Assembly: GCA_031431875.1 (NCBI GenBank)
Contig: JANPEF010000055.1
Coordinates: 1 to 58,018, forward strand
Source: Candidatus Eiseniibacteriota bacterium
GTDB lineage: Bacteria; Eisenbacteria; RBG-16-71-46; DASYSL01
Direction of reading: 5' to 3'
Length of the DNA stretch: 58,018 nucleotides
Shown: positions 27,813-55,815 of the stretch, one piece after another
Layout of the letters: each line of letters opens with the position of its first letter
Position numbering within the stretch: the stretch's first letter is position 1
Made by a program: the position numbers and the translations under genes
The notes under the pieces: model-generated
Seen by the model: the letters and a program-made list of their open reading frames with translations, nothing else
Told to the model about the DNA's origin: nothing
The model's database searches: none

Positions 27813-28160
27813 TCAGACCGAGAACGATTCGCCGCACGAGCATGAGCGTTTCGCGTTCGGGTTGAGGAACTTGAACCCGGTGTCCATGAGCGACTCGACG
27901 AAGTCGAGGGTGGTGCCGGCGAGGAACAGCTGGCTCTTGATGTCCAGGTAGACGCGCACGTCGTCGAACTCGACGACCTGGTCGCCCTTCTTCGCCTCGT
28001 TCTCGAAGTCGAGGAAGTAGGTCAGCCCGGAGCAGCCGCCGCCGCGCACGCCGACGCGGAAGCCGTGGCCTTCCTTGCCGTGCTTGGCCAGCAGCGCCCT
28101 CGCCCTGGCGTACGCCTTCGGCGTGATCTCGAGCAGCGGTCGCGGGTTGGTCTCGGACAT
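27813..28160 (-). CDS. iscA: A-type Fe-S carrier (HesB/IscA)
   Basis: GGGCSG and NPNAKRSCSCGESF. Confidence 0.92.
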   Translation of the reverse strand: MSETNPRPLLEITPKAYARARALLAKHGKEGHGFRVGVRGGGCSGLTYFLDFENEAKKGDQVVEFDDVRVYLDIKSQLFLAGTTLDFVESLMDTGFKFLNPNAKRSCSCGESFSV

Positions 28161-28181
28161 CGCAGGGTCTCCGTTCGTGGT

Positions 28182-29387
28182 TCAGCGGTCGCGGACGCGG
28201 GCCACGGTGGCCGGTCGCTCCGCATCGTACACCGCCGCGGACTCGCGCAGTCGCTGGACGGTTGCGATCACCCGGTCGGCGGCGAACTCGATCTCCTCGT
28301 CGGTGTTGAAGCGGCCGATCCCGAAGCGCACCGAGGCGTGGGCCCGCTCCGGCGACAGGCCGATGGCGCGCAGCACGTGCGACGGCTCGATCGACGCCGA
28401 GCTGCAGGCCGAGCCCGACGACACCGCGACGTCGCGCAGCGCCAGCAGCAGCGCCTCGCCCTCGATCCCGTCGAACGACAGGTTGAGGTTGCCGGCGAGC
28501 CGGTGCTCCAGACCGCCGTTGACGTGCACGCCGGAGACGTCGGCGACGATGCGCTCGCGCAGGCGATCCCGCAGTGCGGCAAGGCGGACGCTCTCGGCCG
28601 GGCCCTCGGCGCTGGCGAGCCCCGCCGCGGCGCCCATGCCGACGATCCCCGGGACGTTCAGCGTGCCCGAGCGCAGGCCCTTCTCGTGGCCGCCGCCGTC
28701 GATCAGCGGCGTCAGTCGCACGCGGGGTCGGCGCCTCACGAACAGCGTGCCGACGCCCTTCGGACCGTACATCTTGTGCGCCGACAGCGCGAGCAGGTCG
28801 ATCTGTGCCGCCTCGACGTCGATCTCGACGCGACCGGCGGCCTGCGCGGCATCGACTGCGAACAACACGCCGCGCTCGCGCGCGATCCGCCCCAACTCGG
28901 CGATGGGCTGGATCGTGCCGATCTCGTTGTTCGCCCACATCACGCTGGCGACGGTCGTGCCGGGGATGAGCGCGGCCGCGAACACGGCGGGATCGAGCCG
29001 GCCGTCGGCGCCGGGGGACAGGTAAGTGACGCGGAAGCCATCCTTCTCGAGCGCCAGGCAGCTGTCGAGCACCGCCTTGTGCTCGGTCGCCATGGTGACG
29101 AGATGGTCGCCTTCGGAGCGTCGGTAACGCGCGGCGCCCTTGAGCATGAGGTTGTCGCTCTCGGTTGCTCCCGAGGTGAACACGATCTCGGCCGGTGTTG
29201 CACCGATCAGCGCCGCGACCTGCGCCCGCGCGGACTCCACCGCCTCCTCGGCCTGCCAGCCGAAGACATGGTTGCGGCTCGCCGCGTTCCCGAACAGCGT
29301 GGTGAACGTCGGCAACATGGCCGCCACGACGCGCGGGTCGCATGGGGTCGTGGCGTGGTTGTCGAGGTAGACCGGGGGCGTGATCAT
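28182..29387 (-). CDS. iscS: Cysteine desulfurase, class I
   Basis: [35 protein letters not shown]. Confidence 0.95.
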
Positions 29388-29510
29388 GGGCTCTCCTGCC
29401 TCCATCATAGCTTGCTTTGGCTGGGCCCGTGGCGGCGGGCTTGCATGTTCTTGTCCGGATCGCGGACTCCGTCCGTTGCTTTCGCCGACGGACGCCCGTA
29501 GGGTCCGGCC

Positions 29511-30362
29511 ATGCCCCGCCTTAGCTCACTTGCGGCCCTTGCGGCCGCGAGTGTTCTTGCCGCCGTTCCCGGTCCCGTCGCCGCCCGTCCCCCGGGGACG
29601 GTGGGCGAGATCCTGCTGTCTGAGCGTGCGGCCTCGGCCCTGGGTGCCGCCGCCGGCGACACGATCGAGGCGGCTGCCGGTGCGACCTTCGCCGTGCCCG
29701 AACGCTACCGCGTCCTGAGCGTCTACCGCCCCTCGGCCGATCCGGTCGAGGTGGGGCGCGACACGCGCTTCGTGCGCTTCCATGCCGACGACCTCGAACG
29801 CCTCGCCGCGCAGCCCGACCAGGTGCAGCGCTTCGTGATCCGCCTGCGCGACCCCGCGCGGGCTGACGAGGTGCGCGAACGCCTCAACGCCGACGGCGTC
29901 GGCTTCGACGCGTACACCAGCCGCGAGCTCGCGGCGCGGACCTCGGGCACGTTCGTCGTCATCGCGCGATTCCAGCGGGCGATCGCGTGGCTCACGCTCG
30001 TGGCGGGGGCGGTGTTCCTGGTCACGCTCATGGTGCTCAAGGTCGAGGAGCGGCGGCGCGACCTGGCGGCGCTGTCGCTGCTGGGCATCTCACGGCGGAC
30101 GATCGTCGGCGGGCTCGTCGTCGAGGCGGTGCTGGTGGCGCTCGTGGGCGGGATCGCCGGGGTGGGCCTGGGGCTCGTGGCCTCGTCCGGCATCAACGCC
30201 TACTTCCGCGCGTACTACCGCACGGACCTCGTTTTCTCGGCGGTGAGCGCGGCGACGGCGGGCACGGCTGTCGCGCTCGCGCTGCCGCTGGGCGTGGCTG
30301 CGGCGGCACTCGCCGCGTGGCGCCTGCTCGGGCGACGCGAGCTGACGCGGGGTGCGCGATGA
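29511..30362 (+). CDS. FtsX/MacB-type ABC permease (short, lacks canonical TM1 region)
   Basis: Signal-like N-terminus, periplasmic segment, [16 protein letters not shown]-terminal TM helices. Confidence 0.8.
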
Positions 30363-31537
30363 TCGGATTCCTGGCGCGGCGCAACCTGCTGCGTCAGCGC
30401 TCGCGCACCATCCTCACCGTTCTGGGTCTGGCCGTCTCGACCGCGCTCCTCTACGACATGGCGCTGCTGTCGCGCGGGCTGCGGGCGAGCCTCGACACGG
30501 TGCTCGGCGAGATCGGCTACGAGCTGCGCATTCTCCCCTCGGGCAGCCTGCCGTTCTCGAGCGAGGCGGCGCTCACCAGCGGGCGCTCGCTCGCCGCGGT
30601 GCTCGATTCGCTGCCGGGTGTCGCCCACGTCGAGCCGCTGTGGGCGACGACGCTGTACCTGGTGCGCGCCGGCGGGGACGCCCCGGTGTCGGCGTTCGCG
30701 CTCGGCATCGACCCCGCGCGCCAGACGCTGTACCGGCTCGAGCGCGGAACCGCCGAGGGGCTGGTGATCAACGCCCGGGTCGCCGACTCGCTGCGGGTCG
30801 ACGTGGGCGACACGCTCGTCGTCGCCGCCGGGCTCGATGCGATCGGCGGCGGCGTCGCCCGCGGCGCGCGTCAGGCGGTCACCGGCGTGGCACGGGTGCG
30901 CTTCGACCTGGCGGACCAGCGCACGGTGATCCTGCCGCTGAGCGGGCTTCAGGCGCTGGCTGGGCGCTCTGCGGAGGATCCGGCATCGTTTCTGCTGGGC
31001 AAGCTCGAACCCGGGGTCGCCGCCGAACCGATCCTGCGCGCGTTCCGGGATCGCCATCCGGAAACCGACGCGTATTCGGTCGCCGACCTGCTGTCGCAGG
31101 TGCGCGGGCAGCTGTCGTACTTCCAGCAGTTCTCGCTGATTCTCGGCACGGTCAGCCTGCTCGTCACCTTCCTGATGATCCTCACGCTGCTCACCCTGTC
31201 GGTGAACGAGCGGCAGGGTGAGTTCGCGATCCTGCGCGCGCTCGGGCTGCCGGCGCACCGGGTTGTGCAGCTCGTGCTGGTCGAAGGTCTCGCGCTGACG
31301 CTGCTCGCGATCGGCCCCGGCATCGCGATCGGCACACTCGCCTCGCACGCGCTCGATGCGATCCTGCGCAGTTCGCCCGGATTGCCGCCCGACCTCTCCT
31401 TCTTCGTGTTCACCCCGGAGGCGTTGTTCTCGACGTTCGGGCTCGTCGTCGTCACCGGGGCGCTGGCCGGCGCCTACCCCGCGCTGTTGGCCGCTCGCAC
31501 CGACGTCGTTCGCACGCTGCACCAGGAGGTGACGTGA
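30359..31537 (+). CDS. FtsX/MacB-type ABC permease
   Basis: RNLLRQRSRTILT, SVNERQGEFAILRALG, YPALLAAR. Confidence 0.9.
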   Translation: MIGFLARRNLLRQRSRTILTVLGLAVSTALLYDMALLSRGLRASLDTVLGEIGYELRILPSGSLPFSSEAALTSGRSLAAVLDSLPGVAHVEPLWATTLYLVRAGGDAPVSAFALGIDPARQTLYRLERGTAEGLVINARVADSLRVDVGDTLVVAAGLDAIGGGVARGARQAVTGVARVRFDLADQRTVILPLSGLQALAGRSAEDPASFLLGKLEPGVAAEPILRAFRDRHPETDAYSVADLLSQVRGQLSYFQQFSLILGTVSLLVTFLMILTLLTLSVNERQGEFAILRALGLPAHRVVQLVLVEGLALTLLAIGPGIAIGTLASHALDAILRSSPGLPPDLSFFVFTPEALFSTFGLVVVTGALAGAYPALLAARTDVVRTLHQEVT

Positions 31538-32250
31538 TTCCTGTCCCCGCGCCGGCCGCGGCGCGCCCCGACGTGGTGGTCGCCGCGTGCGAGGCGACGA
31601 AACTCTACCCGATGGCCGCCGGCGACGTGCACGCGCTGCGCGGAGTGAACCTCGAGGTGCCGAGCGGTGACTACCTGACGCTCATGGGCCCCAGCGGCTG
31701 CGGCAAGAGCACGCTCCTGAACCTGTTCGGCGCGGTCGACCTGCCCAGCGCCGGCACGATCGAGCTCGAAGGCGTCGACACCCGCGCCCTCGACGACGGC
31801 GCGCGCACGAAGCTGCGGCTGACGCGTGTGGGGTTCATCTTCCAACGTTTCTTCCTGCTGCCCATGCTCACTGCGTACGAGAACGTCCTCCTGCCCATGC
31901 TCGAGGCCCGCGTCCCCAAGGCCGAACGCGAGGCCCGCGCCCGCGAGCTGCTCGACTACGTGGGCCTCGACGCGCGCCGCGATCACCGGCCATCCCAGCT
32001 GTCGGGCGGCGAGATGCAGCGCGTCGCGATCGCCCGCGCACTCTCGAACCGGCCACGCCTGCTGCTCGCCGACGAACCCACGGGCGAGCTCGACGAGGCC
32101 ACCGGCGACGCGATCGCCCGCCTGTTCCGCCGCCTGCACGGCGACGGGCTCACACTCGTGCTGGTGACGCACAATCCCGACCTGGCGGCCCAGGGACGCC
32201 GCACGCTCCACCTGCGCGATGGGCGCATCGTCGAGGAGACGTTTCACTGA
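31534..32250 (+). CDS. ABC ATP-binding protein (LolD/MacB-like)
   Basis: GPSGCGKST, LSGGEMQRVAIARAL, ADEPTG, VTH. Confidence 0.95.
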   Translation: MIPVPAPAAARPDVVVAACEATKLYPMAAGDVHALRGVNLEVPSGDYLTLMGPSGCGKSTLLNLFGAVDLPSAGTIELEGVDTRALDDGARTKLRLTRVGFIFQRFFLLPMLTAYENVLLPMLEARVPKAEREARARELLDYVGLDARRDHRPSQLSGGEMQRVAIARALSNRPRLLLADEPTGELDEATGDAIARLFRRLHGDGLTLVLVTHNPDLAAQGRRTLHLRDGRIVEETFH

Positions 32251-33788
32251 TGTGGCTCCTGGCGCGGCGCAATCTCGAAGTGCGGCCTGGGCGGACGCTC
32301 CTGTTCCTCGGCGGCTTCGCGCTGGCGGTCGGCGTGATGATCGCGCTGCTGTCGGTGGGCGAGGCGATCGTCGAGCAGGCGCGCGACGCGGACCTGGTCG
32401 GCGGGGGGGACCTCGTGCTCGTGCCCGCGGGCACGGACGTCGAGGTGCTCAAGCTCGGCGGTGTCACCGCGATGTTCGCCACGATCCCGAACGCGCGCTT
32501 CATCCAGCGCCAGCTGCTCGGCGGCCCGCGTTACGCCGACGTGATCGCCGCCGCCGCGCCCTCCTGGTCGGGTCGTCCGGTGTTCCTGCGCACCGCTTCC
32601 GGCGGGCCGATCGTGCAGGGGATCGCCAGCGCGACCGTACCATCGCTCGAGCGCGCGGTCGGGGCCTCGAGCCTGCCGCCGGAGTGGACGGACTCGCCCG
32701 GCGAGGCGTTGCTCGCCACGATGGCCGGTCCGGCGCTGTACGACGAGATGGACCGCTGGCACCGACCGGACCCGGCGCATCCGGATCGCGCGCGCTGGGC
32801 CGAGTGGCAGTACTTCAACGTGCTCGATCCGGCCAGCGGGCGGTATGCGTACCTGTCGTTCCTCGTCGCCGGCGATGTGCATGCCGGTCGCGGCGTGGGC
32901 GGCCTCTCGATCCAGCTCGGTGGGCCCGGCGTGCCGGCCGCGCGCCACGCGTTCGCCGTGCCGATCGACCCGTCGGCGACCGACTCGACCGGCGTGGGCT
33001 TCACGGTCGGCGGCGCGTCGGTGCGGCTCGAGAACGGCGTGTACCGGCTGCGCGCGGGCTTCGCCGACCAGGCGACCGGTCGCCCCGTCGGGCTCGACCT
33101 CACGGTCACGCCGACGCCGCGCGCGTACTTCCCGCCGGTGATCCTGCGCGGCGCCGACGGTTTCGAGTCGGGATATGCCGTCCCGGCGTTGCTGGCTCGC
33201 GCCACGGGGACGGTCGATGTCGCTGGACGCGTTACGCGCTTCGAGGACGCGCTCTCGTACCACGACCACAACTGGGGCACGTGGCGCAACGTGGCGTGGG
33301 ACTGGGGACAGGTGCAGAGCCCCGACGCGCGATTTGCGATCGTGTACGCGGTCGTCCACGCGCCGGAACTGGAGCGTGCGGGGCAGGGTGGGCGGCACTT
33401 CGCGATCATCAGCTCGGACGAGGGCTTCCTGGGCGTGTTGCGCCCTGAGCGGATCACGTACGCGGGCTGGCACGAAGGTCCCATCGTCGCGGGCCGACGC
33501 GTGCGAGTCCCGGGCGTCGTTCACTTCGCGGCCGCGTCGGCAGGCGACTCGCTTGACGTGCGCCTGGCGGTCGAGGACGTGACCGCGTCGCTTCCGGCGG
33601 GGGACCCACGCGACGACGGTGCCGGCATCGGGCTCGGCGGTGGACGGGTGTTCCTGCAGATGCGGGGACAGTGGACGGTGCGCGGGCGGGTGGCGGGTCG
33701 CGCACTCGACTTCGACGCGCCCGGGGCGGCCGAGACCTTCGTGGAGCGCCCGATCGCCGGTGCTGCGGCGCGTCCCTCGGCGAACTGA
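32250..33788 (+). CDS. Fusion of permease N-terminus (TM1 plus partial periplasmic domain) and AttH/CrtC-like lipocalin domain
   Basis: MWLLARRNL..RPGRTLL permease start, then WAEWQYF, YHDHNWG and WDWG motifs. Confidence 0.75.
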   Translation: MWLLARRNLEVRPGRTLLFLGGFALAVGVMIALLSVGEAIVEQARDADLVGGGDLVLVPAGTDVEVLKLGGVTAMFATIPNARFIQRQLLGGPRYADVIAAAAPSWSGRPVFLRTASGGPIVQGIASATVPSLERAVGASSLPPEWTDSPGEALLATMAGPALYDEMDRWHRPDPAHPDRARWAEWQYFNVLDPASGRYAYLSFLVAGDVHAGRGVGGLSIQLGGPGVPAARHAFAVPIDPSATDSTGVGFTVGGASVRLENGVYRLRAGFADQATGRPVGLDLTVTPTPRAYFPPVILRGADGFESGYAVPALLARATGTVDVAGRVTRFEDALSYHDHNWGTWRNVAWDWGQVQSPDARFAIVYAVVHAPELERAGQGGRHFAIISSDEGFLGVLRPERITYAGWHEGPIVAGRRVRVPGVVHFAAASAGDSLDVRLAVEDVTASLPAGDPRDDGAGIGLGGGRVFLQMRGQWTVRGRVAGRALDFDAPGAAETFVERPIAGAAARPSAN

Positions 33789-33797
33789 AAAACCTGT

Positions 33798-33826
33798 TTG
33801 ACGTCCGGTCCGGGCTGGGGCAATCT
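33798..33826 (+). promoter_or_regulatory. sigma70-type promoter
   Basis: TTGACG-N17-CAATCT. Confidence 0.55.
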
Positions 33827-33835
33827 GGGGTCTGT

Positions 33836-33854
33836 ATTGAGACTGAGTCTCAAT
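33836..33854. promoter_or_regulatory. Perfect 9-1-9 operator, Fur-box-like
   Basis: ATTGAGACT-G-AGTCTCAAT, lying just downstream of the predicted transcription start. Confidence 0.75.
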
Positions 33855-33883
33855 TGCAGATCGTCTATTTCCCGGAGGTCCGG

Positions 33884-36193
33884 ATGTCGTCCCCTCGCCG
33901 TCGCTTCGCCCGTCGCCTGTTCCCGTGCATCGCCCTGCTCCTCGGCCTTCTCCCCTTGCCCGCCTCGGCGGTGACGAGCCTCACGCTCGAGCGCGAGCGC
34001 GTCCTCATGGGGACCCGCTGTGCGCTCGTTCTGCACGGCGAGGATCGCGAGGCGCTGGACGCCGCCGCGACCGCCGCTTTCGATGCGATCGCGCGTTGCG
34101 AGGACGAGGCGAGCAACTGGCGCAACGACTCCGAGCTGGCTCGCGTCAACGCGGCGGCCGGAAGGGTCACGCCGGTCTCGCCCGGCCTGTTCGCGATCCT
34201 TGCATCCGCCCGAAAGTGGGCCGAGCGGACCGCCGGAGCATTCGACGCGACGGTCGAGCCACTGACGCGCGCGTACGACCTGCGCGCAGCAGGACGGTTG
34301 CCTGACGCGGTGACGCTCGCCGCCGCGCGCGCCCTGGTCGCGGGGCGCACGGTGGAACTCGATGCCGTTGCCCGGACGGTGCTCCTTCCCCGTGCCGGGA
34401 TGGCGTTTGACCTGGGTGGAATCGCCAAGGGTGAGGCGCTCGACCGCGCGGTCGATGTGCTGCGTGCCCGCGGGGTGAAGAGCGCGCTGCTCAACTTCGG
34501 AGGCCAGGTGAGCGCGCTCGGCGCCCCGGCCGGCGCCGAGGCGTGGACGGTCACACTGGCCGACCCGCGCGATCGTGCGCGAGGCGTGACGACGATCGCG
34601 CTCAAGGACGCGTCGGTGTCGACGTCGGCGGCCAGCGAACATGCGCTGCCGGTCGGCGACACGATGCTCAACCACATCCTCGATCCGCGCACCGGCCTGC
34701 CGGCCGCGGACTGGGGTGCGGCGGCGGTGATCGCGACCCGCGGCGTCGATGCCGATGCGGCGTCGACCGCGCTCTACGTGATGGGCCCCGCTGCGGCGCG
34801 GGCGTTCGTGCGGGACGCCGGTGACCTCGAAGCGGTGCTCCTCGTCGACGATGCCACGGTCGCCGGCGGCGTGCGGGTCGAGCGGGTCGGTCCGGCCATC
34901 GCGATGCTGGCCGCGGTGGGAGCGGCAGATCCGGCGAAGCCGTCGTCGCTGGCTGCGCCCTCGAACGACGAACTGGCGCGGCGGATCGAGGTGCTCTCGG
35001 GTGAACTCGACGACCTGAAGCTGGGCGAGGTGGCCGCCCCCGCGAGCACGTCGCGCTACGGCCTGGGGCCCGCGGCGTCGAAGGTCTACGGCGTGAAGCA
35101 GGGCGTCTCGCTCGGCGGCTACGGCGAGATGCTGTACGAGAACTTCGCGGCCGAGCGCGAGGATGGCGTGACCCAGTTCACGCCCGACCAGATCGACTTC
35201 CTGCGGGCGATCGTCTACGTCGGCTACAAGTTCTCGGACAAGATCGTCTTCAACTCGGAACTCGAGTTCGAGCACGCGACGACTGGCAAGCGCGGTTCGG
35301 TCTCGGTCGAGTTCGCTTGCCTCGACTATCTCGCCAGGCCGGCGATCAACCTGCGCGCCGGCATGGTGCTGCCGCCGATGGGCTTCGTGAACGAGTTGCA
35401 CGAGCCGCCGACCTTCCTCGGCGCACGGCGTCCCGAGGTCGAGCAGCGCATCATCCCGTCGACCTGGCGCGCGAACGGTCTCGGCGTCTTCGGGGAGACC
35501 GCATCGGGCCTCTCCTATCGCGCCTACGTCGTCGAGAGCTTCCGCGGCGTCGCCAACGCGGGGCAGTCGATCCGCGGTTTCACCGCCGCCGACGGCGTGC
35601 GCGAGGCGCGGCAGAGCGGCTCGTTCGCCCGGGTCGAACAGTGGGGGCTGACCGGACTGGTCGAGTACCGTCGCGGTGGCGTCCGCGCCGGGATCTCGGG
35701 CTTCACCGGTGGAGCGGCGCAGGGGGACACCACCGCCGCGGGCGAATCGTTCACCGGGCAGACGCAGATCTGGGAGGCGCACGGCGAGTACAAGGGCCGC
35801 GGCCTGTCGCTGCGCGCGCTCTACGCGTACGGATCGATCGACGAGCCCGAGCGCTTCAACGAACGGAACGCGGTCGCGCCCGGGAGCAATGCCTCGGTCG
35901 GTTCGCGCCAGTTCGGCTGGTACGCCGAGGCTGGCTACGACGTGCTGCGCCTGTTCGCCCCGGGATCGGAGTGGACCGTCACCCCGTACGTGCGTTACGA
36001 GCGGTACGATACCCAGGACGAGGTTCCCGTCGGGTACGCGGCGAATCCGGCGAACGACCGCACGCTCGTGACCGCCGGTGCGGCCCTGTACCCGCATCCG
36101 CAGGTCGTCCTCAAGGCGGACCAGCAGTGGCGCATGAACGAGGCCGAGACCGGGCAGAATCAGTTCAACGTCGCGCTCGGGTACCTGTTCTGA
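33884..36193 (+). CDS. apbE: ApbE flavin transferase fused to an outer-membrane porin-like beta-barrel
   Basis: Signal peptide. ApbE motifs MGT, SELARVN, GAFDATV, DLGGIAKG, STS, HILDPRTG, ADAASTA. Then a coiled coil and a barrel (GGYGE, FNSELEFEH, terminal GYLF). No stop between the domains. Confidence 0.88.
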   Translation: MSSPRRRFARRLFPCIALLLGLLPLPASAVTSLTLERERVLMGTRCALVLHGEDREALDAAATAAFDAIARCEDEASNWRNDSELARVNAAAGRVTPVSPGLFAILASARKWAERTAGAFDATVEPLTRAYDLRAAGRLPDAVTLAAARALVAGRTVELDAVARTVLLPRAGMAFDLGGIAKGEALDRAVDVLRARGVKSALLNFGGQVSALGAPAGAEAWTVTLADPRDRARGVTTIALKDASVSTSAASEHALPVGDTMLNHILDPRTGLPAADWGAAAVIATRGVDADAASTALYVMGPAAARAFVRDAGDLEAVLLVDDATVAGGVRVERVGPAIAMLAAVGAADPAKPSSLAAPSNDELARRIEVLSGELDDLKLGEVAAPASTSRYGLGPAASKVYGVKQGVSLGGYGEMLYENFAAEREDGVTQFTPDQIDFLRAIVYVGYKFSDKIVFNSELEFEHATTGKRGSVSVEFACLDYLARPAINLRAGMVLPPMGFVNELHEPPTFLGARRPEVEQRIIPSTWRANGLGVFGETASGLSYRAYVVESFRGVANAGQSIRGFTAADGVREARQSGSFARVEQWGLTGLVEYRRGGVRAGISGFTGGAAQGDTTAAGESFTGQTQIWEAHGEYKGRGLSLRALYAYGSIDEPERFNERNAVAPGSNASVGSRQFGWYAEAGYDVLRLFAPGSEWTVTPYVRYERYDTQDEVPVGYAANPANDRTLVTAGAALYPHPQVVLKADQQWRMNEAETGQNQFNVALGYLF

Positions 36194-36771
36194 GTTCGCA
36201 CTCGCGTCGCCACGCCCGGCTCGCCATCATGCTCCTCGGCGTGATGGTGGGCAGCGGCGTCGCCGAGGCAAAGACCTATCTGTCGCGGGAGCGCGCGCTG
36301 GCCCAGGCATTCGGCGCCGACGCAACGATCGAGTCGCACGCCGTGTTCCTCACCGCCGAAGCCGCGAAGCGGGCCGAGACGGCGGCTGGCGCGAAGCTCG
36401 CGACGCCGCGGGTGACGGCCTGGGTCGGCCGGAGGGGGGATCGCATGCTCGGCACGGCCTACCTCGACACGCACCTGGTGCGCTCGATGAAGGAGACTGT
36501 GTTGGTCGTCGTCTCGCCGGCGCGCCGGGTCATGGCCGTCGAGGTGCTCGCCTTCAACGAGCCCGAGGACTACCTGCCGCCACGCCGCTGGCTCGATACG
36601 TTTGCGGATCGTGCACTCTCGCGCGATCTCAAGCCCGGTGCGGCGGTGCCGCACCTGGGCGGTGCGACGCTGACGGCACGCGCGGTGGCGACGGCCGTCC
36701 GGAGGACGCTCGCACTGCACGTCGAGGTCGAGGCCGCGCTGGCCACCGGCGCAGCGACGGGGGGGCGATGA
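36190..36771 (+). CDS. Extracytoplasmic FMN-binding domain protein (ApbE substrate)
   Basis: Signal peptide, EPEDY, flavinylation-like motif LGGATLT. Start is CTG 36190 or ATG 36229. Confidence 0.82.
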   Translation: MSSHSRRHARLAIMLLGVMVGSGVAEAKTYLSRERALAQAFGADATIESHAVFLTAEAAKRAETAAGAKLATPRVTAWVGRRGDRMLGTAYLDTHLVRSMKETVLVVVSPARRVMAVEVLAFNEPEDYLPPRRWLDTFADRALSRDLKPGAAVPHLGGATLTARAVATAVRRTLALHVEVEAALATGAATGGR

Positions 36772-37304
36772 AGTACATGCAGAACGGCGGCTTCCGCAAT
36801 CACCCGCTGATGCGGCTCACGCTGGGCGGGGCGCTCGTCCTGCTCGCCGGGTTCTGGATCACGACGGCGCTCATGTACTTCCGCGCCATGACGCTCGATC
36901 CCGCCTCGGTCGTCGCCTATTACCGGGGGGACGAGGCGCGCTTCCTCGAGCCGCGGACCTACGGGTCGATGCTCGAGGTGACCCACACGCACCTGCCGAT
37001 GATGGCGCTGGTGATGCTGCTCCTCACCCACCTGGCGATCTTCATCCCGTGGTCGCAGGGCCGGCGGGCGGCGTTGATCGTCGCCGCGTTCGGGTTCGCC
37101 CTGGGCGGCGAGGCCGCCGGATGGCTGGTCCGCTTCGTGTCCCCGGGCTGGGCCCCGCTCAAGGTGTTCTGCTTCCTGGGGCTCGAGGCGACCCTGGCCT
37201 TCCTGCTCACTGGACTGGCCCTGTACCTGTTTGCGAGCGACCGGCCGGGGGCCCGCTCGAACGTCCGGGCGGAGACCATGCAGGGCGAGGAGTACGGGGA
37301 GTAA
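36768..37304 (+). CDS. Four-TM membrane protein with intramembrane histidines
   Basis: ATGA coupling. Hydrophobic helices including THTHLPMMALVMLLLTHL. Confidence 0.8.
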   Translation: MKYMQNGGFRNHPLMRLTLGGALVLLAGFWITTALMYFRAMTLDPASVVAYYRGDEARFLEPRTYGSMLEVTHTHLPMMALVMLLLTHLAIFIPWSQGRRAALIVAAFGFALGGEAAGWLVRFVSPGWAPLKVFCFLGLEATLAFLLTGLALYLFASDRPGARSNVRAETMQGEEYGE

Positions 37305-37663: not shown

Positions 37664-38353
37664 CTACGCGGGGTCGAGGCCGGCAGGGGAGAACAGCGCC
37701 GGTCGTCGCCCGATGACCTGACGCATCGCCCGCTGGAAGTTCGCGTACTGTCCCGAGCCCGGATGCGGAATACGCTCGAGCTCGAGGCGCGGGCCGAGCC
37801 CGGCGCGGACGAGGATCGGCTCCAGCCGGTCGTGCACCGTCACCTTGATCATCACGAGGTACTCGGGTTCGAGCCCGCGCAGCTCACGCGTGAGCCACGT
37901 CTCGGCGCAGCGCGTGACCGCCGCGCCGCGCGCTCCCTCGTCGCGCACTCCGTTGACCGCGCACTTGGCCGCATCGACCAGGTACATCCCGCGGCGCTGG
38001 AACTCGGCGAGCAGGCGCGGCTTCCACGCGGGGCGATCGCGCTTCGCCTCGGCCAGCGTGGCGCCGCACGATTCGGCCAGCGCGAGCACGTCGGCCATCG
38101 CCCAGAACAACATCGAGGGATCCTCGCCGGGCGGGCGCTCGGCGGGCAGGTAGAAGTGCGACCAGCGGCCGCGGCGGTTCTTCTGCGGCGGCGACTCGGC
38201 GACGAACAGCACCCGGACCCGCGCCGGGCGGTACGCCTCGGCCAGGCGCGAGAACGTCGCGCGGCGATCGTCCGGTGGCACGCCGAGGTCCGCGCAGCGC
38301 GTGCAGGCGGCGGACTCGGCGGCGAGTGTGGCGAGCGTGGCGGGTTCGGTCAT
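37664..38353 (-). CDS. Uracil-DNA glycosylase superfamily protein, probably Fe-S containing
   Basis: CTRC, VLFVAESPP, AAKC..RC..WL..EL, HPGS. Confidence 0.8.
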   Translation of the reverse strand: MTEPATLATLAAESAACTRCADLGVPPDDRRATFSRLAEAYRPARVRVLFVAESPPQKNRRGRWSHFYLPAERPPGEDPSMLFWAMADVLALAESCGATLAEAKRDRPAWKPRLLAEFQRRGMYLVDAAKCAVNGVRDEGARGAAVTRCAETWLTRELRGLEPEYLVMIKVTVHDRLEPILVRAGLGPRLELERIPHPGSGQYANFQRAMRQVIGRRPALFSPAGLDPA

Positions 38354-38474
38354 CTTGCCGCGCGGCGGAGACGAAGCGCTCGGAACTTCATTGGGCCCTC
38401 CCTGTTCGTGAACTCGACCCGCGACGACGGCACGCACGCTAGGGCGCGCCACGCGCCACGGCAAGCGCGAACGC

Positions 38475-38503
38475 TTGACGGGTGCACATTTGTGCAGTAG
38501 GGT
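38475..38503 (+). promoter_or_regulatory. Promoter with LexA-type SOS box
   Basis: TTGACG-N17-TAGGGT, with the palindrome TGCACATTTGTGCA (38483-38496) in the spacer. Confidence 0.8.
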
Positions 38504-38538
38504 TGTCGCATTCCCCTCCCGGTCGCCGGAGCGACCCC

Positions 38539-38793
38539 ATGCGTGTCGAACGACTCGATGAACCCGTCCGCGTGCGCGCGGACTTCGCGGGCGGCCGGGC
38601 CACGCCCGTCGTCTTCCAGCGCGGGACCCAATCGCAGCGCATCACCCGGGTCAACTCGCGCTGGGAGGACCGCGTCGGCCGCCAGCCGCTCTATTACTTC
38701 GCCTGCTCGGTCGAGTCGGGCGACGTGTACGAGCTGTGCCTGAACGCGCACGAACTCACCTGGCGCCTCACCTCGGTGATGCTCGATGGCTGA
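38539..38793 (+). CDS. Small beta protein of the mutagenesis cassette (DUF6504-like)
   Basis: RBS GGAG. P..F....RITRV..RW...YYF.....G.VYEL.......W.L pattern. Overlaps dinB. Confidence 0.75.
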   Translation: MRVERLDEPVRVRADFAGGRATPVVFQRGTQSQRITRVNSRWEDRVGRQPLYYFACSVESGDVYELCLNAHELTWRLTSVMLDG

Positions 38794-40045
38794 GCCCCTC
38801 GCGACGATTGCAACGCCGCGCGTGCAGCCCACGGCGGCCGACCTGCCCGTGCTCCACCTCGACATCGACGCGTTCTTCGCCTCGGTCGAGCAGGCGCGCG
38901 ATCCACGCCTGCGCGGGCGACCCGTGCTCGTGGGCAACGGCGTGATCGCGTCGTGCTCGTACGAGGCGCGCCGCTTCGGCCTGAAGGCGGGGACGCCGCT
39001 GAGCGAGGCGCGCCGCATCTGCCCCGACGCCGTGATCCTCGACGGCCATGCCCCGACGTACCGCGCGTTCGGCGAGCGCATCTTCGCGCTCGCGGCGCAG
39101 CTCACGCCGCACCTCGACACGTACCTCGACGAGGCGTACGGCGACCTCGCCGGTACCGAGCGCCTGCACGGCGATCCGCTGGCGCGCTGTGCGGCGTTGC
39201 GCGCCGCGATCGCCGAGGCCACCGGCGGCGTCACCGTGACCATCGGCCTGGGGCCCAATCGCATGCTGGCCAAGCTCGTGGGGAAGACCGCGAAGCCCGA
39301 CGGCCTGGCGTGGATCACCGCCGCCGAGGCCGACGGGTTCCTCGCCGGGCGCCCCGCGTCGGACATTGCCGGCGTGGGCCCGGCGATCGCCCAGCGCCTG
39401 GCGGGCATGAACGTGCACACGGTCACCGACCTCAGGCGGCTCGACGTCGCGACGCTGGCGGGCTTGTTCGGCGCCGTCGGCCCCATGCTGTACGAGCGGG
39501 CGCGCGGCCGCGACACGCGCGCGGTGTGCACCCGCGAGGTGCCGCAGACGATCTCGCGCGAGACCGCGTTTCACCGCGCCAGCGCCGACCCGGCCGAGAT
39601 CGAGGGCATGCTCCACTACCTGGCCGAGCGCGCCTGCCGCGCGACGCGCGCGCTCGGCCTCACCGCGCGCACGATCGGCCTGCGCCTGCGCTACGCCGAC
39701 GGCGTGAGCGAGGAGGGAAGGCACACGCCGGCCGTGCCCAGCGCGCTCGACCCCGACGTGCATGCCGTGGTGCGCGCGCTGCTTTCGAAGCTGTGGACGC
39801 GACGGGTGCAGCTGTCGCACGTCGGTGTCGTGCTGTCGAACTTCGCCGCACTCGATGGCGCGCCGCTCGACCTGTTCGATGGAGCCGGGCAGGACCGCGC
39901 GCACCGCCTGGTCGAAGGGCTCGACGCGGTGCGCGATCGCTACGGGCACGCGGTCGTCGTCTCGGGGCGCTCGCTCTCGCTGCTCGGCACGCTGCCGCAG
40001 GATCGCTACGGGTTCGTGCTGCGCACGCCGTCGCTGACCAAGTGA
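38786..40045 (+). CDS. dinB: Y-family DNA polymerase IV
   Basis: HLDIDAFFASVEQ, SYEARRFG, LDEAY, AKPDG. Clamp-like motif PLDLF. Confidence 0.92.
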   Translation: MAEPLATIATPRVQPTAADLPVLHLDIDAFFASVEQARDPRLRGRPVLVGNGVIASCSYEARRFGLKAGTPLSEARRICPDAVILDGHAPTYRAFGERIFALAAQLTPHLDTYLDEAYGDLAGTERLHGDPLARCAALRAAIAEATGGVTVTIGLGPNRMLAKLVGKTAKPDGLAWITAAEADGFLAGRPASDIAGVGPAIAQRLAGMNVHTVTDLRRLDVATLAGLFGAVGPMLYERARGRDTRAVCTREVPQTISRETAFHRASADPAEIEGMLHYLAERACRATRALGLTARTIGLRLRYADGVSEEGRHTPAVPSALDPDVHAVVRALLSKLWTRRVQLSHVGVVLSNFAALDGAPLDLFDGAGQDRAHRLVEGLDAVRDRYGHAVVVSGRSLSLLGTLPQDRYGFVLRTPSLTK

Positions 40046-43000
40046 GCCCGGGGGCGGGGGGCGGCGCGGCGCCGCTCGCGGTGCGCTCGGACGGCTCGCT
40101 GTTGCGCGGGCGGGTCGCGGTCGGCGACCTGGTCGCGCGGGCGGCGACCCTCGGCTACGGCGCGCTCGGTCTGGCCGACCGCGACGGGCTGTACGCCAGC
40201 GTGCGCTTCGTCGAGGCGTGCCGCGCGCACGGGTTGCGCCCGGTCGTCGGCGTCGAGTTGCCGGCGGGGCCGGTGGGCAAGGCCGCCGCGGCGCAGCGCC
40301 TCGACGGGCCGCCGGTGGTACGCGTGTTCGCGCGCGATCGCGCCGGCTGGTCGGCGCTGTGCCGGCTCGTCACCGCGCGGCATCTCGCTTCCGACACGCC
40401 GTGGGACGAGGCGTGCGCCGAGGCTCTGGCGGGCGGCTCGGTGCACGCGGTCGCGCGCACGATCGACGCGGCGATCGCGCTGCTGGCGGCGTGCCGCGCG
40501 CGCGGCGTCGACCCGGCACGGCGGCTGTGGCTCGGCGCCGAGACGCCGGGCGCCGACGGCGCGCGCGCCCGTGCGGCCGATCAAGCGGCGACGCGGCTCG
40601 GACTGGCCGCGGTGGCGACCGGGCGCGTGACCGGGATCGCACCGGGCGACGGGCGGCTCGAGCGCACACTCGCGGCGGTGCGGCGCAACGAACTGGTGGC
40701 GCGCGTGGCGCCGGCCGATGCGCTCGACGGCGCCGATCCGCGCACCGCCGTGCTCGAGCCGGCGGCAGCGTGGCGCGCGCGCTGGGAGGCCGTGGGGCGC
40801 GAGGGCGCGCGGCTCGTCGCCGCGAACGCGGAGCTGATCGCCGACTGCAGGCTCGACCTCACGCTGGGCGTGCCGCGCTTTCCGGTCGCGCCGGTGCCTG
40901 CGGGGATCGCACCGTACGAGTGGCTGCGCTCGCGCTGCGAGGAGGGGATCGCGCGGCGCTACCCCTCGCCGCCGGCGGCGCGTGCGGCGCGGCGGCGGCT
41001 GGCACTCGAGCTGGAGACGATCGACCGCCTGGGCTTCACGCCGTACTTCACGCTGGTCGCGGACATCGTGGGCTTCGCCGTCGCCGCGGGCATCCCGAGC
41101 GTGGGCCGCGGCTCGGGCGCGGCGTCGATCGTCAGCTACGTGCTCGGCATCACGAACGTCGACCCGCTGCGCTACCGCCTTGCGTTCGAGCGCTTCCTCC
41201 ACGCCGAGCGGCGCGACTGCCCCGACCTCGACATCGACCTGTGCTGGATCCGTCGCGACGAGGTGATCGCACACGTCTACCGCACGTACGGGGCCGAGCG
41301 CGTGGCGACGATCTCGACCCAGTGCACGCTCGGCCCGCGCGGAGCGTTTCGCGAGGCGGCGAAAGCGCACGCCGTCGCGCCGCCGGTGGTCGATCGCCTC
41401 GCGCGCTTCGTCCCGCGCGACGAGACCGGGCTCGGCCCCGACGCGCCCGCGGGAGCGCTCGCGGCGCTGCTGGCCGCGCCGGCGGCGCGCCACGGGATCG
41501 ACCTCGCCGAGCCGGCGCTCGCGGCGGCGCTGGCCGACACGCCGGCGATGGTCGGCGTGATCGACCACCTGGGCATGCACCCGTGCGGGCTCGTCATCGC
41601 CGACACGGCGCTCACCGACTACACCGCGCTCGAGGAGGCGACCAAGGGCTTTGTGGTCACGCAGCACGAGATGCGGCAGATCGAGGCGCTGGGCCTGGTC
41701 AAGATGGACCTGCTGGGCAACCGCGCGCTGACCGAGATCGGCGACACGATCGCGCGCGTGAGCGCCGTCACCGGCGGGCGCGTCGTGCCGCGCGTCGACC
41801 CGCCGCCCGACGGCGACCCGACGACGGCGGCGATGCTGGCCGCGGGCGACGCGCTGGGCGTCTTCCAGTTGGAGTCGCCCGGGATGCGCAACCTGCTGCG
41901 CATGCTCGATGCACGCGACCTCGACGACACGATCGCCGCCGTCGCGCTGATCCGCCCCGGGCCGGCGGGCACCGGCATGAAGGACCTGTACGTGCGCCGC
42001 AAGCGCGGGCTCGAGCCGGTCACCTACGGGCACCCGCGGCTCGAGCCGGTGCTCGCGCCGCAGCGCGGCGTGCTGCTCTATGAAGAGGACGTGATGGCCG
42101 TCGTCGCGGCGTTGTGCGACGTGACGCTGGCGCAGGGCGACCTGTTCCGTCGCGCGCTGGGCGGCACGCGGAGCGAGGACGATCGCGCGGCGCTCAGGCG
42201 CTGGTTCGCGCACCGTGCGCGCGCCGCGGGCCTCACGCCGGACGAGGCGCGGCGCGCCTGGGGGGAGGTGTCGCGCTTCGGCGCGTACGCGTTCTGCCGT
42301 GCGCATGCCGCGGGCTACGGCGTGCTCGCCTGGCAGGCCGCGTACCTGCGCGCCCACTGGCCGGCCGCGTTCGCCTCGGCGCTGGCCGACCATCACGCGG
42401 GGATGTACGCGCTGTGGGCGCACGTCGCCGACGCCCAGCGCCACGGCGTGCGCTTTGTACTGCCGTGCGTGAACGCCTCGGCGGCGGGCTTCACGCTCGA
42501 GGGCGACCCGGTCGAAGGGCCGGTGCGCGTGGGGCTGTCGCGCGTCGGTGGGCTGTCGCAGAAGACGATCGCGCGCACGCTGGCGGCGCGGGTCGAAGGC
42601 GGTGCGGCGGGCGGTGCGTTCGGCTCGCTCGCCGACTGGCTGGGTCGTGTGCAGCCGGCGGCCGGTGAGGCGGAGACGCTGGTGCGGGCGGGTGGATTCG
42701 ACTTCACGGGCCGAGGGCGGGCGTCGCTTCTCGTCGAACTTGGAGCGACCGGCGCCGCTTATCGCGGCGCCGAACAGGAAGGCGCGTTCCGCGTGCGCGC
42801 CTCGCCGCTGCCGCCGCCCGAGGTGCCCGAGTTCGCGCCGTGGGCGCGGCTCATGCACGAGTGGAACGCGATCGAGCTGGGCGTGACCGCGCATCCGCTC
42901 GCCGCGTTCGCGCCCGCGCTGTGGCCGGCCGATCGCCCGTCACGCGCGCGGGCGGCCGACGCGCCGCGCGGCTTCGACGCGGCGTGCGCGCTGGAGGAGA

Positions 43001-43335
43001 GGAAGGGCAAGCGCGTGCGCGTGACCGGGCTCATGGCCGCCGCCCGCCGCGTGCCGACGAAGGACGGGAAGCGCATGTACTTCCTCACGCTCGACGACGG
43101 CACGGGGCTGGTCGAATGCACGCTGTTCCCGGACGTGTACGGCCGCTGCGCGGGGGAGCTGTCAGGAAGCGGGCCCTACGTCGTCGAGGGCACGGTCGAG
43201 TCGCAGTACGGCGAGATCACGGTGACGGCCACGTCGTGCCGGCAGATGAACGCGACAGAGGCGGGGCGGGACTCGGCGGGGTCCCGGCGCGCGGAGCGGG
43301 CGCAGGAGCCGGCGAGCCGGTACGGGACGGGGTAA
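40042..43335 (+). CDS. dnaE2: Error-prone DNA polymerase III alpha-like (DnaE2 type)
   Basis: GTGA coupling. Degenerate PHP domain, GRGSGAAS, PDLDIDL, KMDLLG, VFQLES and a C-terminal OB fold. Confidence 0.85.
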   Translation: MSPGAGGGAAPLAVRSDGSLLRGRVAVGDLVARAATLGYGALGLADRDGLYASVRFVEACRAHGLRPVVGVELPAGPVGKAAAAQRLDGPPVVRVFARDRAGWSALCRLVTARHLASDTPWDEACAEALAGGSVHAVARTIDAAIALLAACRARGVDPARRLWLGAETPGADGARARAADQAATRLGLAAVATGRVTGIAPGDGRLERTLAAVRRNELVARVAPADALDGADPRTAVLEPAAAWRARWEAVGREGARLVAANAELIADCRLDLTLGVPRFPVAPVPAGIAPYEWLRSRCEEGIARRYPSPPAARAARRRLALELETIDRLGFTPYFTLVADIVGFAVAAGIPSVGRGSGAASIVSYVLGITNVDPLRYRLAFERFLHAERRDCPDLDIDLCWIRRDEVIAHVYRTYGAERVATISTQCTLGPRGAFREAAKAHAVAPPVVDRLARFVPRDETGLGPDAPAGALAALLAAPAARHGIDLAEPALAAALADTPAMVGVIDHLGMHPCGLVIADTALTDYTALEEATKGFVVTQHEMRQIEALGLVKMDLLGNRALTEIGDTIARVSAVTGGRVVPRVDPPPDGDPTTAAMLAAGDALGVFQLESPGMRNLLRMLDARDLDDTIAAVALIRPGPAGTGMKDLYVRRKRGLEPVTYGHPRLEPVLAPQRGVLLYEEDVMAVVAALCDVTLAQGDLFRRALGGTRSEDDRAALRRWFAHRARAAGLTPDEARRAWGEVSRFGAYAFCRAHAAGYGVLAWQAAYLRAHWPAAFASALADHHAGMYALWAHVADAQRHGVRFVLPCVNASAAGFTLEGDPVEGPVRVGLSRVGGLSQKTIARTLAARVEGGAAGGAFGSLADWLGRVQPAAGEAETLVRAGGFDFTGRGRASLLVELGATGAAYRGAEQEGAFRVRASPLPPPEVPEFAPWARLMHEWNAIELGVTAHPLAAFAPALWPADRPSRARAADAPRGFDAACALEERKGKRVRVTGLMAAARRVPTKDGKRMYFLTLDDGTGLVECTLFPDVYGRCAGELSGSGPYVVEGTVESQYGEITVTATSCRQMNATEAGRDSAGSRRAERAQEPASRYGTG

Positions 43336-54400: not shown

Positions 54401-54482
54401 CGGCTACAAGATCTTCGAGGAGATCAACACCTACCCCGCGGTCACCTACCTGAAGAAGGTGACCCGCGACGTGCCGGTCTGA
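51462..54482 (+). CDS. actB: Alternative complex III molybdopterin-oxidoreductase-like/Fe-S subunit
   Basis: Tat signal KRREFLK followed by Cys. [12 protein letters not shown]. Four C-terminal Fe-S motifs including CVGTRYC.NNCP. Confidence 0.92.
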
Positions 54483-54492
54483 GAGGGCGATC

Positions 54493-55815
54493 GTGTCGAC
54501 TTTGACTTACAAGAAGGTCAACGAGGACTTCCTCTCGCTCCTCCGCAACCCCACGAAGGCGTGGTACATCCTGTTCGCGCTGGACCTGCTGGTCCTCGCC
54601 TTCGGGGCGGCCTGCTGGATCTACCAGATCCAGACGGGCATGGGCGCCGCCGGCAAGATGCGGCCGGTGATGTGGGCGCTCTACATCACGGACTTCGTGT
54701 TCTGGGTCGGCATCGGCCACGCCGGGACGCTCATCTCGGCCGTGCTCTTCCTGTTCCGCTCGCGATTCCGCAACGCGATCTACCGCACCGCCGAAGGCAT
54801 GACCGTGTTCGCCGTCATGACCGCCGGGCTGTTCCCGCTCATCCACCTGGGCCGTGTGTGGTTCTTCTACTGGCTCCTGCCATACCCGAACCAGCGCGGG
54901 CTGTGGCCCAACTTCCGCTCGCCGCTCGAGTGGGACGTGTTTGCCGTCTCGACCTACCTGACGATCTCGTCGGTATTCTTCTTCGTCGGCCTGATCCCCG
55001 ACCTGGCTGTGGCGCGCGAGAACGCGGTTGGCCTGCGCAAGAAGATCTACACGCTGGCCTCGCTGGGCTGGCGCGGCACCGACCGCCAGTGGAAGCACTA
55101 CAACAGCGCCTACATCTACTTCGCCGCCCTCGCGACGCCGCTGGTGTTCTCGGTCCACTCGGTCGTGTCGTGGGACTTCGCGATGTCGGTCAACCCGGGC
55201 TGGCACGGCACGATCTTCGCGCCGTACTTCGTGGCCGGCGCCATCTTCTCGGGGATCGGCATGGTGATCACGCTCATGGTTCCCATGCGCAAGATCTTCG
55301 GGCTCGAGAAGTACCTGACCGACTGGCACTTCGACTCGATGGGCAAGATCCTGCTCTTCACGTCGCTGATCGTGACCTACGCCTACGCGACCGAGATGTT
55401 CATGGCGTGGTACTCGGGAAACATCTTCGAGAAGAGCGTGTTCTGGGATCGCGCCTTCGGCCCGGTCGGCTGGGCGTACTGGATCATGGTCCTGTGCAAC
55501 TGCCTGATCCCGTTGCTCTGCATCAAGAAGTCGATGCGCACGAATGTGTGGGGGATGTTCATCATCTCGATCTTCGTCAACATCGGGATGTGGTTCGAGC
55601 GCTTCGTCATCATCGTGCAGTCGCTGTCGCACAACTTCGACCCGTGGGTGTGGCGCATGTACCAGCCCACCCTGGTGGACGTGGGGGTCTCGATCGGGTC
55701 GTTCGCCTGGTTCGGGATGTTCTTCCTGTTGTTCATCAAGTTCCTGCCGGCCATGGCGATCGTGGAGATGAAGGAAATCCTCCCGGCGCCGCGCAAGAAT
55801 GCGAGTGCGGCATGA
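54493..55815 (+). CDS. actC: Alternative complex III quinol-oxidising membrane subunit (NrfD/PsrC)
   Basis: FVFWVGIGHAGTLISA, IHLGR.W, SPL.WD, GMWFERF. Confidence 0.94.
   Translation: MSTLTYKKVNEDFLSLLRNPTKAWYILFALDLLVLAFGAACWIYQIQTGMGAAGKMRPVMWALYITDFVFWVGIGHAGTLISAVLFLFRSRFRNAIYRTAEGMTVFAVMTAGLFPLIHLGRVWFFYWLLPYPNQRGLWPNFRSPLEWDVFAVSTYLTISSVFFFVGLIPDLAVARENAVGLRKKIYTLASLGWRGTDRQWKHYNSAYIYFAALATPLVFSVHSVVSWDFAMSVNPGWHGTIFAPYFVAGAIFSGIGMVITLMVPMRKIFGLEKYLTDWHFDSMGKILLFTSLIVTYAYATEMFMAWYSGNIFEKSVFWDRAFGPVGWAYWIMVLCNCLIPLLCIKKSMRTNVWGMFIISIFVNIGMWFERFVIIVQSLSHNFDPWVWRMYQPTLVDVGVSIGSFAWFGMFFLLFIKFLPAMAIVEMKEILPAPRKNASAA

Follow-up and report, generated by a model that had tools for sequence, protein, structure and literature searches.

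A three-gene module at positions 33,884 to 37,304 of a 58,018-nt stretch of DNA from a Candidatus Eiseniibacteriota bacterium (contig JANPEF010000055.1, analysed whole and called the window below) encodes an ApbE-porin fusion protein, a predicted exported carrier of flavin mononucleotide (FMN) and a four-helix membrane protein with conserved histidines. From its sequence and predicted structures, and with somewhat more confidence than doubt, we read the module as a Fur-type-regulated, flavinylation-based envelope redox system for reductive iron uptake. The novelty lies in the fusion of ApbE to a porin. The features of the module are, in window coordinates:

33798..33826, plus strand: possible sigma-70-type promoter, weak (TTGACG-17 nt-CAATCT, read by eye)
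33836..33854, no strand assigned: perfect 9-1-9 palindrome ATTGAGACT-G-AGTCTCAAT, likely operator of a Fur-family repressor
33874..33878, plus strand: Shine-Dalgarno sequence GGAGG of the fusion gene, 5 nt before the ATG
33884..36193, plus strand: ApbE-porin fusion gene, 769 amino acids (aa) (Pfam, AlphaFold2, Foldseek)
33884..33970, plus strand: predicted Sec signal peptide, residues 1-29, ending in A-S-A, without a lipobox (hydropathy and reading by eye)
33980..34888, plus strand: domain of ApbE (FAD:protein FMN transferase; FAD, flavin adenine dinucleotide), residues ~33-335 (Pfam, AlphaFold2, Foldseek)
34889..34963, plus strand: Ala/Pro-rich linker, residues 336-360, mostly disordered, with a possible eroded remnant of a signal peptide
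34964..35020, plus strand: helix 361-379, likely a coiled-coil stalk; unfused porins have the same helix (AlphaFold2)
35102..36190, plus strand: predicted 16-strand outer-membrane porin barrel, final residue Phe (AlphaFold2, Foldseek)
36190..36771, plus strand: exported FMN_bind-like protein, likely start CTG 36190, first ATG 36229
36768..37304, plus strand: four-helix membrane protein, 178 aa, Aq_1264_TM family (PF27139), its start overlapping the stop of the FMN gene (ATGA)
36984, 36990 and 37029, plus strand: codons of H73, H75 and H88, the conserved histidines of the Aq_1264_TM protein

Palindromes of the 9-1-9 form occur three times in the window and 89 times in the genome; AT-rich ones account for 3 of the 89, and the one upstream of the module is among them. 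An earlier annotation of this DNA from its sequence alone (the first-pass annotation) had placed the module under a Fur-like box, and this held in part. The match to the Escherichia coli Fur consensus fell away, with 7 mismatches in 19 positions, a value tied with four other sites in the window. What stood is a palindrome of the delta-proteobacterial type common to iron transporter and fur genes: 12 of the 16 defined positions of its 17-mer match the dFUR box WTGAAAATNATTTTCAW given in PMC545781. By this comparison of sequences, the palindrome fits the delta-proteobacterial FUR box better than it fits the E. coli consensus.

All five fused relatives with sequence available ahead of the module carry the palindrome there, and six distant loci have it with one to three changes; the sister family lacks it. 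We scanned the 3.75-Mb genome with an operator matrix built from 11 sites of relatives and none of this genome. Two sites scored above 14 bits (40.9 and 36.1), one at this operon and the other 93 bp before the sole FTR1 gene; three local shuffles gave 2-4 sites above 14 and none above 18. The FTR1 operon (G000:C91:71904-76843), on a contig other than that of the flavin module, encodes an FTR1-FtrD-like fusion, two FtsX-type ATP-binding cassette (ABC) permeases and an ATPase with an iron-dependent-repressor C-terminal domain. It resembles P19 clusters, and no P19 or FMN gene is evident in it. Because the operator recurs only at the FTR1 permease, the link to iron is stronger than the first-pass annotation could show.

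The site was also sought as a pattern across 15 genomes, the kin among which do not count as independent samples; the reversed pattern gave 0 throughout. The pair of module and FTR1 sites was repeated in G067, G068, G069, G070 and G072, and the module site only was present in G071. Among genomes further removed, in G048 and G050 the site precedes fur-feoB-dtxR/feoA-porin operons, G007 has two sites (feoAB and one unassigned) and G039 has four (module, feoAB and two unassigned). The five genomes with no site are G064 and G065, which have no module, G066, in which the upstream part is cut, and G103 and G132 of the sister family. Two Fur-family proteins are encoded in the present genome, and one shares 41% identity with the Fur from the G050 operon that carries the box.

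The module itself was followed through three sets of loci: 21 GTDB loci from several phyla, 38 loci of the phylum and the best 80 of 561 metagenome loci. In the phylum, the membrane gene is present in 44 of 206 genomes, and regions from 40 of the 43 other genomes were compared. Among the GTDB loci, the porin, FMN and membrane genes are adjacent in that order in 18, the rest being cut by contig ends, and ApbE is present in 14. Neighbour profiles built from locus seeds and checked against Pfam placed an FTR1 or FeoB gene nearby in 5/21 GTDB, 3/38 phylum and 13/80 metagenome loci (raw counts, with no background control), FeoB accounting for 11 and FTR1 for 2 of the metagenome cases. In some other genomes the module sits inside fur-feoB operons.

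The first gene matches the initial description of a single uninterrupted 769-aa open reading frame joining ApbE, a coiled coil and a barrel. No stop interrupts the frame 33884-36193, and its G+C content at third codon positions is 0.78-0.98 across all 50-codon blocks, as in coding DNA. Residues 42-318 match Pfam ApbE (PF02424) over profile positions 1-265 of 266 with 224 bits (cut-off 25.6); the cut-off of the NCBIfam ApbE equivalog is missed (93 vs 498). The AlphaFold2 model, based on a 105-row alignment, has a mean predicted local distance difference test score of 91.8 and a predicted template-modelling (TM) score, pTM, of 0.62. It places the ApbE domain up to residue 335, disorder at 341-357, a helix at 361-379 and 16 strands within 407-768; the pTM suggests that ApbE and the barrel have no fixed mutual orientation. 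In Foldseek searches, the ApbE part matched Ftp, FmnB and ApbE structures (E down to 4e-23, target TM-scores 0.80-0.89) and the barrel part matched the general porins PorB, OmpC and OmpU.

Within the ApbE domain, K182, S248, E252, H264, D291 and T295 align to Treponema pallidum Ftp. W79, K182, E252, H264, D267, D291 and T295 are invariant in 58/58 fused rows, and position 248 is Ser or Thr in all 58. The catalytic triad of ApbE is Asp-Ser-His (PMC12052999). By these alignments the domain, the only ApbE in the genome, carries intact catalytic residues, and FMN transfer is predicted. A lipobox pattern is absent from the N-termini of 58/58 fused proteins. A twin-arginine translocation (Tat) signal, RRRF, was considered for the fusion and dropped, as RRRF is not conserved among relatives.

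For the barrel, profile searches returned little: residues 319-769 had no Pfam match at E 0.05, and so none to the Porin_O_P (PF07396) profile, and a PDB sequence search with the barrel gave no match. An Atlas feature score of 0.97 against a cluster in which 68% of members carry PF07396 is a lead only. The invariant residues of the barrel include 8 acidic, 5 basic and 3 His, with acidic and His ones on strands 2-4 and loop 3. OprO/OprP porins are anion-selective through a basic ladder, and some other porins are trimeric with a coiled-coil stalk.

The second gene was recovered as annotated at first, an FMN-binding-like protein with a GGATLT motif whose gene is coupled to the fusion. The codon of the candidate flavinylated Thr (GGATL) lies at 36667-36669, and xGA[T/S]L is present in 56/56 FMN proteins, with Ser or Thr at x in 31/56. 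The likely CTG start at 36190, overlapping the TGA stop of the porin (36190-36193, TTCTGA), gives a full signal peptide; several fused relatives have the same overlap, and four close ones have no in-frame ATG before the hydrophobic segment (by-eye reading). Taken together with the ATGA overlap at the membrane gene, this makes the three genes look translationally coupled. The genome's sole FMN protein of this kind lies in this operon; it had no match in a PDB sequence search.

The third gene was assigned to Aq_1264_TM because this name stands on all of the 120 listed homologues (best 93% identical), and its Atlas score is 0.97. The family has 620 representatives at 50% clustering, including fusions of 417-600 aa (HMMER); P0251 joins Aq_1264_TM to a DtxR-like metal-binding and FeoA region, and P0245 joins it to a PilZ domain. 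The protein has four long helices and His at 12, 73, 75 and 88, and H75 and H88 correspond to the earlier description of a four-transmembrane protein with His 13 apart in one helix. The expectation that these residues are conserved was upheld among close relatives: 77 close homologues and 59 locus proteins all have H73, H75 and H88. All three are on helix 65-90, in which the HxH motif stands beside a conserved Glu (E70).

The membrane slot is exchangeable. In 70 metagenome loci with an FMN gene, the Aq_1264 type occurs in 22, a four-His protein in 43, both in none and neither in 5 (all near a locus end). The alternative protein (loci L116-L191), of ~150 aa and from an unnamed family, carries four invariant His (H51/H69, H118/H132) on two helices. 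Weak matches to cytochrome b561 and DUF4405 were found in 5 and 3 of 29 members, all under the cut-off, and homology between the two families was not detected (probability 2%). Neither family had a match in PDB sequence searches.

These features suggest how the module might work. When iron is low, a Fur-family repressor would leave both operators; the shared site is observed and the repressor is presumed. Sec would export the fusion, after which the barrel would insert into the outer membrane and leave ApbE in the periplasm on the flexible linker and helical stalk; the barrel would thereby stand in for the lipid anchor that most ApbEs carry. There the Thr of GGATL would receive its FMN from ApbE. 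Electrons from the quinol pool would reach the FMN carrier through the membrane protein, which is likely a homodimer with a heme or metal bound between H73 of one chain and H75 of its partner. The carrier may then reduce iron arriving via the acid- and His-lined pore, for hand-over to FTR1 here and to FeoB in relatives.

A more specific version is offered tentatively, and we would put it well short of an even chance. In it, the module is an undescribed iron-reduction machine that spans the envelope: the porin is selective for metal and bears at its periplasmic exit a flavin transferase of its own, by which an FMN shuttle is loaded and docked at the point of iron entry; Aq_1264_TM is a new class of small homodimeric membrane cytochrome with heme between H73 and H75; and the fusion is a Rosetta stone for a physical porin-ApbE-carrier complex in all of the unfused versions.

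Several observations weigh against the iron-reduction scheme or parts of it. The FMN protein scores 19.2 bits against PF04205 (FMN_bind), under the cut-off of 22 (E 0.0019), with weak RsxG/RnfG matches. Compared with D-x-x-[S/T]-G-A-[S/T], it has G-A-T, no Asp, and Gly in place of the first Ser or Thr; the upstream Asp is found in none of the 56 FMN proteins. According to one study cited by PMC12052999, the Asp of the motif has minor effects only. The membrane protein had no match at E 0.05 in the scanned Pfam library, which does not contain PF27139, and structure searches with its model returned generic four-helix bundles (best Z 9.3) and no cytochrome. In 110 more distant rows, H73 is kept in 88, H75 in 94 and H88 in 93. 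In the metagenome set, 62/80 loci have neither transporter nor regulator, many of them on short contigs. The FTR1-side site also lies 54 bp before a divergent gene for a holin-like membrane protein, and FTR1-family permeases often partner oxidases. A DtxR/MntR-type gene heads the operon in 17/24 loci of the sister family, in which the box is absent, and this leaves room for manganese.

The alternatives differ in which part of the scheme they touch. An even chance goes to the view that the fusion is merely a tolerated by-product of gene order and that the anchor brings no particular benefit; this view bears on the tether alone and leaves a role in iron uptake intact. Since apbE usually comes immediately before the porin gene, in many cases overlapping it as ATGA, stop loss and erosion of the second signal peptide would recur. 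In the sister family, 24/27 regions have separate apbE, porin, FMN and membrane genes, apbE standing immediately before the porin; in 11 of these the two overlap as ATGA (by-eye reading), and none of the 24 complete loci is fused. Just 4/80 metagenome loci are fused. In P0259, P0260, P0264, P0315 and L086 (2080-3678), ApbE is joined not to a porin but to the C-terminus of the inner-membrane protein; P0315 combines a duplicated membrane unit and ApbE in one protein. The hydrophobic segment before ApbE is retained in these fusions, which we infer fits a topological need. The lipid anchor of one ApbE is dispensable (PMC12052999), and the lack of a fixed domain orientation in the model points the same way. 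Set against this, the fusion is kept in all seven module-bearing relatives of its own family (in part in G066, by way of L002 in G070 and of L196 in G072) and throughout a clade of 40 rows in the barrel tree, where identity goes as low as 47%. The hydrophobic core of the linker is eroded in 47/58 fused proteins, as export of a single polypeptide needs. Moreover, the ApbEs of the module, fused or not, mostly have no lipobox, so that the fusion adds an anchor that is otherwise missing.

The search for the ApbE-porin architecture in independent genomes that the first-pass annotation had proposed was positive. In 61 of the 120 best-scoring homologues (query included), from sources that include Eisenbacteria, Acidobacteriota and Gemmatimonadota, ApbE precedes the barrel; 1125 homologues had E <=0.001 among 8000 scored, and as the list is ranked by score, fused forms are over-represented in the 120 inspected. 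Since the fusion recurs among homologues, it is not an assembly error. In a FastTree tree of 168 barrels, the fused state requires at least 7 changes, 5 of them forced by well-supported branches, and an approximately unbiased (AU) test on 35 rows, chosen after the FastTree tree had been seen, rejected a single clade of fused barrels (p 4e-53). The tree and the AU test indicate repeated fusion or fission, but not a count of origins. Direct descent of the own-family fusion from the apbE-porin arrangement of the sister family was considered and dropped, as the barrels are not sisters in the tree. At L142, a fused ApbE-porin stands alongside the four-His membrane protein. The proposal that the porin tethers ApbE at the outer membrane thus survives as to the fusion, which is real, but is weakened as to functional need. 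Because most loci are unfused and some join ApbE to the inner-membrane subunit, the tether is dispensable; ApbE can be brought together with the module in several ways, of which the fusion is one and not an essential one.

Separate ApbEs downstream of the module were also seen. Those of L005, L007, L009, L011, L013, L017, L018, L019, L084 and L089 often start with twin-arginine, Tat-like signals (by-eye reading), unlike the fused and sister-family ApbEs; a SufT-like gene often follows these separate copies. At L003:2580-5729 (the same DNA as L060), the fused module is faced by two genes whose products, judged by eye, resemble a multiheme cytochrome and a large barrel partner.

It is unlikely, in our judgement, that the membrane protein binds metal directly via H73, H75 and E70, as a relay, sensor or dock for the carrier, and is not a heme quinol oxidase, with electrons coming from elsewhere. 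The arrangement of three His in one helix, with HxH next to a conserved Glu, would suit such a role, as would the absence of a cytochrome match by sequence or fold and the P0251 fusion. Bis-His pairs on two helices of one chain, as in the MsrQ-like, PepSY-like and DUF4405 cytochromes, are not present, and pairing would need a dimer. A two-heme homodimer model scored 0.15 against a mark of 0.42, which is evidence neither way. On the other side is the strict alternation with a four-His, cytochrome-b-like protein in the same slot. Twelve tandem-duplicated members add to this: repeat 1 keeps H73 only (12/12), and repeat 2 keeps H75 and H88 (12/12) and H73 in 1/12. Such a split of the His between repeats is as expected of a site shared by two subunits (H73 and H75) and fits a two-subunit bis-His site; the duplicated members may be one lineage and hence not 12 independent events, which tempers this argument for the heme reading. 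No donor of the RnfD/NqrB type was found in the genome. Absences of other ApbE substrates count for little, because the PF04205 search of the genome missed the operon's own FMN protein; a DUF3570 search was blank, its control likewise silent, and two DUF2271 matches were both under the cut-off.

Electron flow in reverse is rather improbable. In that case the flavin carrier would be a sink, oxidising Fe(II) for an FTR1-type permease and feeding the electrons back into the quinone pool. A parallel would be FtrABCD, whose cupredoxin and polyferredoxin partners probably work in that oxidative direction. The co-regulated transporter is an FTR1-FtrD-like fusion, FeoB_C has no match in the genome, and many sister-family loci have a small cupredoxin-like gene after the module (in L056-L082 it usually stands after the membrane gene). 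However, FeoB, a ferrous importer, is the commoner neighbour in the metagenome loci; covalent FMN carriers are of low potential; and similar clusters are interpreted as reductases in PMC8238504.

We consider it improbable that the module serves another metal, such as manganese, or a merely iron-regulated redox task, for example an iron-sparing electron path through flavin. The DtxR/MntR-type gene and missing box of the sister family would fit the former, and Fur regulons can contain iron-free electron carriers (PMC545781), which would fit the latter; but the sole other operator site is at an iron permease, here and in five relatives, and elsewhere the module lies within fur-feoB operons.

Scarcely credible is the notion that the fusion is an assembly or sequencing artefact, or that translation from GTG 34871 makes a porin-only protein the main product: this codon stays GTG in 5/5 close relatives and the linker is among the more hydrophobic ones (2.25, see below), but 61 of the 120 best homologues are fused, contigs of two studies have no gap at the junction, and the GTG lies within an ApbE strand with no Shine-Dalgarno sequence before it. 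The artefact part is largely refuted. The junction was checked in assembled Logan contigs, not raw reads. Run X3 gave a gap-free contig over the entire stretch, with 4 substitutions, though this DNA may itself derive from it; a contig of X4, from the same study as X3, covers 34631-34983 with zero differences; and one of X7, from another study and a different strain, covers 34861-34999 with no gap. These contigs have no gap at the junction and the fused relatives read through it, contrary to the stop or frameshift that the first-pass annotation had named as refuting the fusion.

The porin-only isoform suggested earlier is likewise unsupported. GTG 34871 encodes V330, within strand 330-335 of the ApbE domain in the AlphaFold2 model, a strand that resembles the 'VRAW'-type tails of unfused ApbEs. 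Median hydropathy over 11 residues is 1.5 in the linkers of 58 fused proteins vs 2.6 at the N-termini of 47 unfused porins, so the linkers are far less hydrophobic than porin signal peptides; that of this protein (2.25) is among the more hydrophobic ones. The suggestion that the linker is a vestigial signal peptide fared better: residues 337-347 are plausibly an eroded remnant of the C-region of a former signal peptide, but not part of a working second one.

Around the module, the window holds other operons. The one immediately upstream (29511-33788), which stays beside the module within the genus, encodes two FtsX-type permeases, an ABC ATPase and a permease-like protein with a weak tocopherol-cyclase-like region. 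About 4.5 kb upstream, on the minus strand (27813-29408), are IscA-like and cysteine-desulfurase-like genes (by eye). Downstream, 37664-43335 carries a uracil-DNA-glycosylase-like gene, a small open reading frame, a Y-family polymerase gene and a long open reading frame resembling the error-prone DNA polymerase III alpha subunit, and is likely a mutagenesis cassette. Genes at 51462-58016 resemble, by eye, those of an alternative complex III or molybdopterin oxidoreductase membrane complex.

If the preferred reading of reductive iron uptake is right, the module points to a widespread route of iron acquisition in poorly studied phyla, in which a porin and a covalent-flavin shuttle take the place of siderophore receptors. 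It gives a testable role to the uncharacterised Aq_1264_TM family and to a porin family predicted in 2004 to be Fur-regulated. ApbE is usually described as an inner-membrane lipoprotein; here its predicted location is the outer membrane, and an outer-membrane ApbE was not found in the literature searched. With the fused version, structural and assay work can conveniently start from one gene, and because the two membrane proteins are interchangeable, a direct swap test is possible.

In the literature covered, from which most subscription papers were outside the scope, neither the module nor the fusion was found described; the large gene-cluster tables of PMC8238504 may list members, and the words 'porin', 'barrel' and 'fusion' are absent from its main text. 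The known ApbE fusions in these sources are the trypanosomatid ApbE-fumarate reductase (PMC12052999) and ApbE-DUF2271 (PMC8238504). As in those, ApbE is here the N-terminal domain of a larger protein; unlike those, which join ApbE to its own substrate, its partner is an outer-membrane barrel in which no flavinylation motif is evident, and the predicted substrate has a gene of its own. Rodionov et al. 2004 (PMC545781) described the psp porin of Geobacter metallireducens and Desulfuromonas, predicted to be FUR-regulated, as preceded by FUR boxes, weakly PF07396-like and matched by an Aquifex homologue, and proposed that it might conduct iron. The present gene shares the upstream FUR box and, by Atlas score, the likeness to a PF07396-bearing cluster, the identity of the families being judged from the description and not from sequences; it differs from psp as described in having ApbE, an FMN protein and a membrane partner. 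P19-FTR1 iron-uptake clusters include an FMN_bind or thioredoxin gene (PMC8238504), and the co-regulated FTR1-FtrD-like and ABC permease operon of this genome has that layout; it differs in that no P19 or FMN gene was seen in it and the flavin module lies elsewhere, with its own porin and membrane protein.

The closest parallels are the flavinylation-linked iron-assimilation clusters with PepSY-like, MsrQ-like, DsbD/DUF3570 or NQR/RNF-like components (Meheust et al. 2021, PMC8238504) and the flavinylation-associated systems that include DUF4405 cytochromes (Huang et al. 2024, 10.1101/2024.03.13.584918). Like them, the module combines an ApbE, an exported candidate for flavinylation and a membrane protein that bears His, with links to iron transporters and Fur. 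It departs from them in that its membrane protein is Aq_1264_TM, outside all of the classes listed there, a dedicated porin is a fixed member, and ApbE is fused to that porin. Measured against the classes listed in these sources, the module would function like the flavinylation-linked iron clusters but belongs to none of them.

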